64,000 bases of DNA from Candidatus Micrarchaeota archaeon (lineage in GTDB: Archaea; Micrarchaeota; Micrarchaeia; Anstonellales; J096), in the NCBI GenBank assembly GCA_015523325.1, contig WAKO01000015.1, positions 9,812 through 73,811 on the forward strand. The letters run 5' to 3'. The notes beneath the pieces were generated by a model. That model did not search any database. It was not told the DNA's origin and saw nothing but the letters and a program-made list of their open reading frames with translations. The translations under genes and the position numbers were made by a program. This document shows, in pieces, positions 21,391 to 25,791 of this stretch (the first letter of the stretch is position 1; each line of letters opens with the position of its first letter).

Positions 21391-21440
21391 TGGAGGCTTT
21401 AGTTTGGGCTAGGAGTTGGAAAGGCCCCTTGCACTTAAAC
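21391..21440 (-). promoter_or_regulatory. 3' trailer half of the 16S pre-rRNA processing stem
   Basis: In RNA sense, GUUUAAGUGCAAGGGGCCUUUCCAACUCCUAGCCCAAACUAAAGCCUCCA pairs with the leader at 22937-23013. Confidence 0.75.
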
Positions 21441-22936
<1,496 letters not shown>

Positions 22937-24053: not shown

Positions 24054-25013
24054 TTAATTTTTGCTTAATTTAATACTTTTTAAAATCTTTCTTATCTCTT
24101 TCTTATTCTCATTTTCTTGAACAAGGCCTTTATCATAAAGATATAAAAACAACTTCCCCCTCCTTTTCCTAACTTCAATAGGAACCTCAAAATCTTCTCC
24201 TTTGTATATCAAATCTATTGGAGTTTTTCCATCTTTATTCTCATAAAACCATGAACTATCTTTTCCCAGTACTTTAAAGGCATTTTCAACAAATCCCATA
24301 TTCCTCACAGCTATTGCAAAATGCAAAGGTAAATTTCCATAAATATCTGGAGAAGATAGCAAATGTGAAAATCCCTTCTCAATTAAAAAGTCAAACTTCT
24401 CCTTAATTTTTAAGAAAAAATTAAACTCAAAGGAAAGTAGGGCTATATTATGCATTATATTTTCCTCATTAAAAATATTTCTTTCTTCAAAAGCTGATCT
24501 TTTCTTTTCGTAAATAAAATCAAAAATATCCAAATCCTCTGAGGATAAAGCATAAACTACAAACTTATTACCACTTTTATCAACTAAAGAGAAAAGCTTA
24601 TCTCCAACTAATTCATAAAAAGAGCAGATAAAAGAAAGGTTATTGATACATCCAAAGATATGTGGATGCAAACCTCCTAATATATCATCTTCAGTTAAAG
24701 AAAACTTATGCTTATTTTCCCAAAAAAACCTCAACACTTCAATACTTGAAAATTGATATGAATTTCTTATTAAAAACTCTAAAAAAGCTTTAGTTGTTTT
24801 AACCCTTTCTAGGGAAAGAACTAGGTTTTCTACATCATCTTTCTCCAAACATTTTAGGAAAAGCTGTTCAAAATAGTCCCTTTTAGATAAGTATTCCTCT
24901 AAAGGCCCATAAGAGGGGGAGTAATTAAACATATCAAATTTTTTGTAGGGGTAAGAATTCTTTTTATTTTGCCCTTTTGGAGAGATATTTTTTGTTTTTC
25001 CCATCTCCTTCAT
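24054..25013 (-). CDS. Ankyrin-repeat-containing protein
   Basis: 319 aa. The C-terminal half has GNLPLHFAIAVRNMGFVENAF and NKDGKTPIDLIY, resembling the repeats of the 4179-4709 protein. Confidence 0.65.
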   Translation of the reverse strand: MKEMGKTKNISPKGQNKKNSYPYKKFDMFNYSPSYGPLEEYLSKRDYFEQLFLKCLEKDDVENLVLSLERVKTTKAFLEFLIRNSYQFSSIEVLRFFWENKHKFSLTEDDILGGLHPHIFGCINNLSFICSFYELVGDKLFSLVDKSGNKFVVYALSSEDLDIFDFIYEKKRSAFEERNIFNEENIMHNIALLSFEFNFFLKIKEKFDFLIEKGFSHLLSSPDIYGNLPLHFAIAVRNMGFVENAFKVLGKDSSWFYENKDGKTPIDLIYKGEDFEVPIEVRKRRGKLFLYLYDKGLVQENENKKEIRKILKSIKLSKN

Positions 25014-25019
25014 CAGCGC

Positions 25020-25068
25020 TCAGCGCTCCAGATATTCATCACTAATCAGGAAACCTGCGTTTCATCAC
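25020..25068 (-). ncRNA. C/D box sRNA (2'-O-methylation guide)
   Basis: Minus strand reads GTGATGA(C)-aacgcaggtttc(12 nt)-CTGA(D')-tta-GTGATGA(C')-atatctggagcg(12 nt)-CTGA(D). C is at 25062-25068, D' at 25046-25049, C' at 25036-25042 and D at 25020-25023. This is the canonical archaeal box order and spacing. Confidence 0.8.
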
Positions 25069-25119
25069 TACTCTTATTTCTCAGTTAAAATTTAAAAATA
25101 GAGTTCCATAATTATCTCT

Positions 25120-25791
25120 TTAATTTTTTATCAAGTCTAAGGCTTCTTCAACTCTTGAAAGCTCAAAACCAGTTGTTAAGGAATTAACAACACAGCCCTT
25201 ATCATTAGCAATAACTCCTAACTTTATGAATTGAGAACCAAGGCTTATGCTTCCCCTCAAAGGAGAGACCTTAAGAGCTTTCTTTATTATCTCTAACTCT
25301 TCATCACTTGCTTTATAAGAAACTAATGCCCCTCTGTTATTAACAACTAAAAGAGAGGCAATTGCTTTATAATTTGCTAAAGATGTTTGAAAGAACTCCA
25401 AACCAGTTTTATCCTCAAGCTCCCTTAAGGCTTCTTTTCCTAAATAAGGAGAGGCTATCCCTCCTTTATCATTAACAGCAATAAGATTACCTAAAGCTGT
25501 TAAAGGAAAGTTCTTTTTTGAAAGCACTATGACTTCCAAATACTCCTTAAAAATTTCTAGCTCTTGTTTTTCAGTAAAATAAGGAAGTAAAACAAACCCA
25601 GAATTTATTACTCCATAAATGCCTAAAAGAGGAGAGTCAAATATCGTTGTTTTTATTGGAAAAACATTTAAGTTATCCTCTATCTCCTCAATTATCTTTG
25701 TTGGAGAGGATGGGGGAAAAAACAAAAATTCATTATTTACAAGAAAAAAAGCACCAATGTTGGGATTTCCATTAAAGCTAAGCCTTCTCAT
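25120..25791 (-). CDS. eif6: Translation initiation factor 6 (aIF6)
   Basis: 223 aa starting FNGNPNIGAFFLVNNEFLFFP, with the pentein-repeat pattern and the conserved neighbourhood with L31e and L39e. Confidence 0.85.
   Translation of the reverse strand: MRRLSFNGNPNIGAFFLVNNEFLFFPPSSPTKIIEEIEDNLNVFPIKTTIFDSPLLGIYGVINSGFVLLPYFTEKQELEIFKEYLEVIVLSKKNFPLTALGNLIAVNDKGGIASPYLGKEALRELEDKTGLEFFQTSLANYKAIASLLVVNNRGALVSYKASDEELEIIKKALKVSPLRGSISLGSQFIKLGVIANDKGCVVNSLTTGFELSRVEEALDLIKN

Follow-up and report, generated by a model that had tools for sequence, protein, structure and literature searches.

Both guides of a stand-alone box C/D sRNA from this Micrarchaeota genome appear to be aimed at one and the same substrate, pre-tRNA-Trp: the wobble nucleotide C34 would be the target of one guide and C39 that of the other, and the sRNA would be transcribed from a box A promoter of its own. 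This reading, to which a probability of roughly 87% is assigned, is drawn from DNA letters and their comparison: from the boxes and guides themselves, from their pairing with an intron-containing tRNA gene on another contig, and from changes in guide and target that go together in related genomes.

The guide RNA gene and its orthologues

The gene lies on the minus strand of the window, that is, the whole 64,000-nt stretch of contig C15 that was analysed. It occupies a 106-nt gap with the aIF6 gene on one side and a 319-aa ORF on the other. Its parts are as follows, with the kind of evidence in brackets:

25020..25068, minus strand: box C/D sRNA body, 49 nt, from the G of the C box to the A of the D box (sequence, Rfam, genome pattern search, orthologues)
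25062..25068, minus strand: C box GTGATGA (sequence)
25050..25061, minus strand: D' guide AACGCAGGTTTC (= AACGCAGGUUUC), 12 nt (sequence, tRNA pairing, covariation)
25046..25049, minus strand: D' box CTGA (sequence)
25043-25045, minus strand: D'-C' linker TTA, 3 nt (sequence)
25036..25042, minus strand: C' box GTGATGA (sequence)
25024..25035, minus strand: D guide ATATCTGGAGCG (= AUAUCUGGAGCG), 12 nt (sequence, tRNA pairing, covariation)
25020..25023, minus strand: D box CTGA, in 12-nt register with C', as in all orthologues (sequence, orthologues)
25013..25026, minus strand: tandem 7-nt duplication GCGCTGA-GCGCTGA (read from the sequence; the orthologues are without it)

Read from 25068 to 25020 on that strand, the parts run GTGATGA-AACGCAGGTTTC-CTGA-TTA-GTGATGA-ATATCTGGAGCG-CTGA, followed by GCGCTG and an ATG at 25013. 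The letters agree exactly with the architecture laid out in the original prediction, and they hold what characterizes an archaeal box C/D sRNA: terminal RUGAUGA and CUGA boxes, and an internal D'/C' pair with a short linker, both spacers being exactly 12 nt long. No terminal stem was found between the 5' and 3' flanks of the sRNA; N. equitans sRNAs are likewise without one (PMC3491384). The 6-nt gap between D box and ATG and the C-box-like junction CTGATGA (25016-25010), both pointed out earlier, are present. Junction and ATG alike are products of the GCGCTGA duplication, which also yields a second CTGA. As this CTGA is out of register with C', and as the duplication is missing from the orthologues, it and the junction are treated as an accident with no box function.

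Could such an array be a chance match of box motifs, or the decayed remains of an sRNA that no longer functions? A relaxed pattern for the whole C/D'/C'/D array finds seven genes in the 701-kb, 34% G+C genome and none in 20 shuffled genomes; all seven have 12-13-nt spacers and a 3-nt linker, the six others sharing the design of the gene described here. When the covariance-model check proposed at the outset was run, many Rfam C/D families matched the region at permissive thresholds; the best of them, sR3 (RF01133), matches over its full length with 38.7 bits (E 3.4e-8), slightly below its gathering score of 41, and the orthologue in G030 scores 43.1 bits, above it. The empty shuffles uphold the call of a canonical C/D box sRNA. 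The small shortfall against the gathering score is one of two points in favour of chance or decay; the other concerns the proteins of the RNP. Fibrillarin (267 bits) and L7Ae (93.6 bits) are encoded in the genome, and Nop5 (PF01798) was not found in the assembly, which is 86.6% complete. Assembly incompleteness is the most likely reason, and 39 of 40 relatives do have Nop5, among them 18 of 18 members of the family. Against a chance match or a pseudogene stand these relatives, the lack of any match in shuffled genomes, four perfect boxes with exact 12-nt spacers, a conserved promoter, and conservation across the order with compensatory changes in the guides; either is exceedingly improbable.

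The half of the gene made up of C box, D' guide and D' box (with up to three mismatches) recurs in 20 of 41 relatives, a reversed control pattern giving none. The other half (C' box, D guide, D box), searched for as TGATGA-N4-CTGGAGC-N-CTGA with one mismatch permitted, recurs in 66 of the 151 genomes sampled from the order and in 16 of 18 from the family, against one for the control. The exact pattern is nearly limited to this order, with 34 of 110 genomes inside it and 1 of 190 outside in a phylum-wide sample. The conserved guide cores are xCAGGUUU for D' and CUGGAGC for D.

The orthologues vary in ways of their own. Some genomes of the order (G042, G104, G038, G050 and G035) carry the D half of the Trp guide two to four times over, on different contigs. 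In G022, G024, G027, G038, G004, G009 and G013, the 3-nt linker between D' and C' gives way to one of 20 to about 85 nt that holds GC-rich hairpins, and the C'/D' boxes of these genes are often degenerate (TGAAGA, TGACGA, CCGA). Linkers of such length are unusual among archaeal C/D sRNAs. In G023 a stretch of 33 nt, with the guide's own TATA box in it, separates the tRNA-Trp gene from the Trp-guide gene downstream of it, and the Trp-guide gene of G029 lies 0.77 kb downstream of a tRNA-Trp gene whose 114-nt intron is without C/D boxes. Proximity of this kind hints at a former linkage of the guide to the tRNA gene.

Pairing with unspliced tRNA-Trp

A search for complements of both guide cores lying close together led to a pair of sites 16 nt apart, on contig C24 of the genome (G000):

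G000:C24:29454-29537, plus strand: unannotated tRNA-Trp(CCA) gene with an 11-nt intron after G37 (pattern search; a different contig from that of the sRNA, C15)

In the order exon, intron, exon, the letters of the gene are GGGGCCGTGGTGTAACCAGGTAGCACAGCAGGCTCCAG, AGAAAGAAGAA and ACCTGCTGGTCGGGGTTCAAATCCCTGCGGCCCCA. ARAGORN did not call a tRNA-Trp(CCA), either in a default run on the whole genome or in a tRNA search at the level of the locus. Eight contiguous Watson-Crick pairs join the D guide to G31-C32-U33-C34-C35-A36-G37 and the first base of the intron, which puts wobble C34 at N+5; nine such pairs join the D' guide to the intron's final three bases (G, A, A), to A38 and to C39-C43, which puts C39 at N+5. 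Both duplexes thus span exon-intron junctions of the pre-tRNA, and for both guides there is a complement in a stable RNA, with the target nucleotide opposite the fifth base upstream of D or D'.

The nucleotides at N+5 are the C of GAAAC*CUG and the C of CGCUC*CAG, as had been predicted from the letters of the guides. That prediction had looked for the targets in 23S rRNA or in other tRNAs. A tRNA outside the window, on another contig, is what was found; 23S rRNA falls away, and the pairing runs over nine and eight contiguous pairs instead of 12. Its statement that neither the 16S copy nor the two tRNAs of the window hold a perfect 12-nt complement is correct, and genome-wide the only such complement is the antisense strand of the sRNA gene itself. 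Complements with two mismatches were rejected as candidates: genome-wide they are scattered matches in coding sequence and, again, the gene's own antisense strand. A 23S rRNA gene was found neither in the window nor elsewhere in the assembly; in the 23S loci of 20 relatives the cores AAACCTG and GCTCCAG match no conserved position, and this candidate too was dropped.

Matches as long as these duplexes (8-9 bp) arise by chance at 41 and 49 sites across the whole genome for the two guides. Since such sites are common, the assignment to tRNA-Trp rests on the co-occurrence of both in one stable RNA, on a register that falls on known methylated positions, and on covariation.

A second stable RNA also offers a double site, and would make the sRNA an rRNA guide:

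21440-22934: 16S rRNA gene, stand-alone
21667-21684, minus strand: 3' strand of 16S helix 41, CAAACCUGCUCUAGGUUC, 16S positions 1251-1268

Both guides would then act on this strand, methylating C1255 and C1261, either as the main job of the sRNA or as a second, clade-specific one. In G000 the D' guide forms eight Watson-Crick pairs there and the D guide ten pairs (three of them G-U), 6 nt apart; the D guide of G001 pairs over 12 of 12 positions with one G-U; G004, G009 and G013 have near-identical 16S sequence; and, by a rough reckoning, the odds that 1.5 kb would hold such a double site by accident are a few in 10,000. In other genera, however, the segment varies freely (g3, g4, g6, G019, G023 and others), while the guide cores are conserved and track tRNA-Trp. 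The two sites also overlap, so that both guides cannot bind together, and the duplexes include several G-U pairs. As a conserved target, helix 41 was rejected: it is complementary in G000, G001, G004, G009 and G013, and not in other genera that keep the sRNA. An rRNA role is therefore unlikely; the match may be a clade-specific second target, or a coincidence.

For the assignment to pre-tRNA-Trp, guide and target can be compared genome by genome. The sRNA and the tRNA-Trp gene were taken from 16 genomes of the order, and 24 intermolecular pairs were counted on the concatenated alignment. Positions 2-9 of both guides are paired in essentially all 16, and compensatory changes occur at three guide-target pairs. 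D' position 9 and tRNA nucleotide 43 form A-U in nine genomes, G-C in six and G-U in one, and are nowhere unpaired; nucleotide 43 covaries in turn with nucleotide 27 of the anticodon stem. D position 9 and intron base +1 form C-G in seven genomes, U-A in six and A-U in three, again with none unpaired (a 17th genome, G029, has C-G), and D position 10 is paired with intron base +2 in 13 of the 16. In G019 a change of D' position 3 from U to A is matched by a change of intron base -2 from A to U. The covariation score is 0.164, as against 0.083 +/- 0.010 in shuffles, none of 500 of which reaches it, and 0.03-0.075 when the partners are slid along one another.

Genus g9 (G020 and G030) has changes of another kind: D' position 7 is G and D position 10 is C, a coordinated pair of changes that leaves the guides complementary to each other. 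Each guide there has one internal mismatch (G-A and C-U) to the tRNA-Trp found in these genomes, which may hold a second, unassembled tRNA-Trp copy.

Is the precursor or the spliced tRNA the substrate? In G000 pairing is nearly equal for the two (D, 8 pairs with the precursor and 8 with the mature tRNA; D', 9 and 8). In the spliced tRNA, A38 follows G37, and could pair only with the six guides that have U at position 9; on this ground the D guide would seem to be built to read the unspliced precursor. In G001, G012 and G019, for example, guide position 9 has a partner in the intron alone. The comparison points to unspliced pre-tRNA-Trp as the likely substrate.

Promoter and neighbouring reading frame

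The surroundings of the sRNA gene, and the other sRNA genes of the genome that lie next to ORFs, comprise:

25091..25098, minus strand: box A/TATA-like element TTTTTAAA, its TTTAAA starting 28 nt upstream of the C-box purine (sequence, orthologous loci)
25120..25791, minus strand: upstream gene aIF6 (eIF-6 family, E 8e-46), its stop codon 21 nt before the TATA element
24054..25013, minus strand: orphan 319-aa ORF with a weak ankyrin-like match, starting 6 nt after the D box
G000:C3:32460-32508, minus strand: C/D sRNA 4 nt before the ATG of a rhomboid protease gene
G000:C16:20289-20337, plus strand: C/D sRNA 9 nt before the ATG of a D-aminoacyl-tRNA deacylase gene
G000:C18:16037-16086, plus strand: C/D sRNA 9 nt before the ATG of an Hsp20 gene

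Counted back from the C box, positions -30 to -25 hold 89-100% A/T across 19 orthologous loci, 17 of which have a TTTAAA-like motif beginning at -32 to -27. The box A of N. equitans, TTTAAA, precedes the transcription start by 26-27 nt (PMC3491384). Because the spacing of TTTAAA fits this archaeal box A distance, the element is read as the sRNA's own promoter, with a predicted transcription start at about the C box; the sRNA would therefore be independent of the mRNA.

The downstream ORF had been described as an ankyrin-repeat gene, a name that its best evidence does not sustain: the Pfam match to Ank_5 is 22.5 bits, below the cut-off of 27. No homologue of it was found in 40 relatives. It has other in-frame ATGs, at 25004 and 24935; an A/T-rich stretch, AAAATAAAAA, lies upstream of the latter, and the true start might be there. 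The genes flanking the sRNA differ among relatives; given this, and an ORF without homologues in those 40 genomes, the juxtaposition of sRNA and ORF is taken as specific to this genome. The sRNA is thus not conserved upstream of orthologous genes, the pattern that had been suggested as a check. Of the unusual coupling between the two that the original prediction proposed, a good part goes: the arrangement is not conserved, the sRNA has a promoter of its own by the reading above, and the layout is one already known in archaea. A shared promoter or read-through is still plausible. There is no T-run between the D box and the ORF in G000, whereas many orthologues have one downstream, and read-through into the ORF is on that account likely. 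The odds are about even that the sRNA promoter also drives the orphan ORF, the sRNA being released by cutting or trimming of the transcript's 5' end.

The layout recurs within the genome. Of its seven sRNAs, four end 4-9 nt short of a gene and are themselves preceded by a TATA-like element; for those on C3, C16 and C18 this element is about 25-30 nt ahead of the C box. The C3 sRNA has a possible pairing of its own: its D' guide forms 9 bp with the 16S 3' end AGAUCACCUCC (16S 1484-1492, window about 21443-21451), and its N+5 is 16S position 1488, adjoining the anti-Shine-Dalgarno sequence.

This repetition, the 6 nt between D box and ATG with no T-run in them, and two orthologues in genus g6 whose D box is likewise followed by an ORF, 4-5 nt away, would suit an element whose main work is done in cis, as the 5' leader of the ankyrin-like mRNA (for example, an RNP-bound 5' end that stabilizes or regulates it), with guiding secondary. 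The ORF, however, is an orphan absent from 40 relatives, and may truly start at 24935 with an A/T-rich stretch of its own upstream, while the sRNA is conserved beside unrelated neighbours, often with downstream T-runs, and its guides covary with tRNA-Trp. In model archaea, moreover, passages of PMC7994747 report that a 5' sRNA decreases downstream expression. A mainly cis-acting role is very unlikely.

Relation to known guides, and what the pairing implies

Guiding to these two nucleotides is already known from other archaea; it is the adjacency to the next gene that is peculiar to this genome. In Haloferax and Pyrococcus, a box C/D guide makes Cm34 and Um39/Cm39 of tRNA-Trp (PMC7994747, PMC6313347). 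The likeness to the Haloferax volcanii intron and to Pyrococcus sR50 lies in a dual guide for C34 and nucleotide 39 of tRNA-Trp, an intron-containing precursor, and L7Ae, Nop5 and fibrillarin, all of which is here predicted from sequence. The defining pairing is found in the letters, one guide having C34 at N+5 and the other nucleotide 39. The differences are in where the guide resides: there it is borne in the intron, whereas here it has a gene and a promoter to itself, on a contig other than that of the tRNA, and the 11-nt intron AGAAAGAAGAA has no C/D boxes, the guide lying outside it. Position 39, too, is C here and U there. Among the 16 genomes tabulated, tRNA-Trp introns are 11-46 nt long (114 nt in G029), and none holds C/D boxes. 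The sRNA is accordingly classed, as a prediction, with the Haloferax/Pyrococcus tRNA-Trp guide in the way it works, though not in being borne in an intron.

Another known C/D sRNA, Pyrobaculum sR26 (Lui et al. 2018, PMC6009581), by its description resembles the present gene in two respects: it is free-standing, and its predicted target is the wobble C34 of tRNA-Trp. Here, unlike there, both guides fall on the same tRNA and covary with intron bases, and the host is a DPANN-type archaeon and not a member of the Thermoproteales. The Pyrobaculum scan was run on mature tRNA sequences, and by its report two guides of one sRNA seldom share a single tRNA (PMC6009581). Rfam sR3 (RF01133), the nearest model, has the same layout at 55 nt. 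By our own reading of its consensus, the D guide ends in UGGAGC, for a target GCUCCA, which again is in the tRNA-Trp anticodon loop; the remaining guide bases differ, and the G000 copy scores below the gathering score. No published target of Rfam sR3 was found in the literature searched.

As for the neighbouring ORF, passages of PMC7994747, citing Tripp 2017, already describe archaeal sRNA genes within 25 nt of ORFs, and co-transcription. As given there, a 5' overlap is rare (7%) in six model archaea and lowers downstream expression (Tripp et al. 2017). The present gene resembles the ORF-adjoining sRNAs of those passages and of N. equitans (PMC3491384) in having a start codon fewer than 25 nt downstream on its own strand, with co-transcription inferred; it differs from the six model archaea, on the figure quoted in those passages, in that 4 of 7 sRNAs of the genome are just upstream of a gene.

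A course of events can be proposed. The sRNA would be transcribed from a box A of its own and is expected to begin at the C box or a few nucleotides before it. With L7Ae, Nop5 and fibrillarin it would form a methyltransferase RNP, and both guides would bind intron-containing pre-tRNA-Trp(CCA): the D guide would place wobble C34 at N+5 to give Cm34, and the D' guide C39 at N+5 to give Cm39. Methylation of C34 and C39 in the precursor is proposed by extension from the Haloferax and Pyrococcus biochemistry (PMC7994747, PMC6313347). By standard bulge-helix-bulge geometry, the central helix would pair C32-C35 (CUCC) with GAAG of the intron, with one C34-A mismatch, and the bulges would be A36-G37/A(+1) and A-A/A38; the structure is a relaxed one, without an outer helix, and RNAfold leaves an open 18-nt loop. 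Since the splice junctions, with the strands of the bulge-helix-bulge, lie within the two duplexes, a bound guide would exclude splicing, and methylation would precede it. Expression, RNP assembly, the methylations and their order relative to splicing are all inferred.

What this adds is modest: the pairing of a trans-acting guide with the intron at both splice junctions, and the unusual frequency in one genome of the sRNA-then-ORF layout. It gives a concrete predicted function and target to an RNA gene that had no annotation, in tiny symbiotic archaea that have barely been studied, and it locates a tRNA-Trp gene that standard tRNA finders miss owing to the short intron. The covariation of guide and intron is comparative evidence that a guide encoded in trans pairs with intron bases at both splice junctions and reads the unspliced precursor; it offers a reason for the small tRNA-Trp intron being retained. 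According to PMC7668247, Cm34 is thought to keep C34 from pairing with any base but G, so that the tRNA reads UGG but not UGA. The predicted Cm34 and Cm39 of tRNA-Trp, thought to stop CCA from reading UGA (PMC7668247), would then be kept even in a 0.7-Mb genome.

A broader proposal has two separate parts: that the short intron is kept since the trans-acting guide needs its bases (intron-dependent methylation), and that C/D sRNA genes in this reduced genome double as promoter-proximal 5' modules of mRNAs. It is speculative, and unlikely to hold. If the second part is true, the sRNP could be a protective 5' end of the mRNA, or could tie expression to the supply of sRNP, as an archaeal analogue of the snoRNP-capped transcripts of eukaryotes. 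The repeated sRNA-then-ORF layout is in any event a lead on promoter sharing by RNA and protein genes in compact archaeal genomes.
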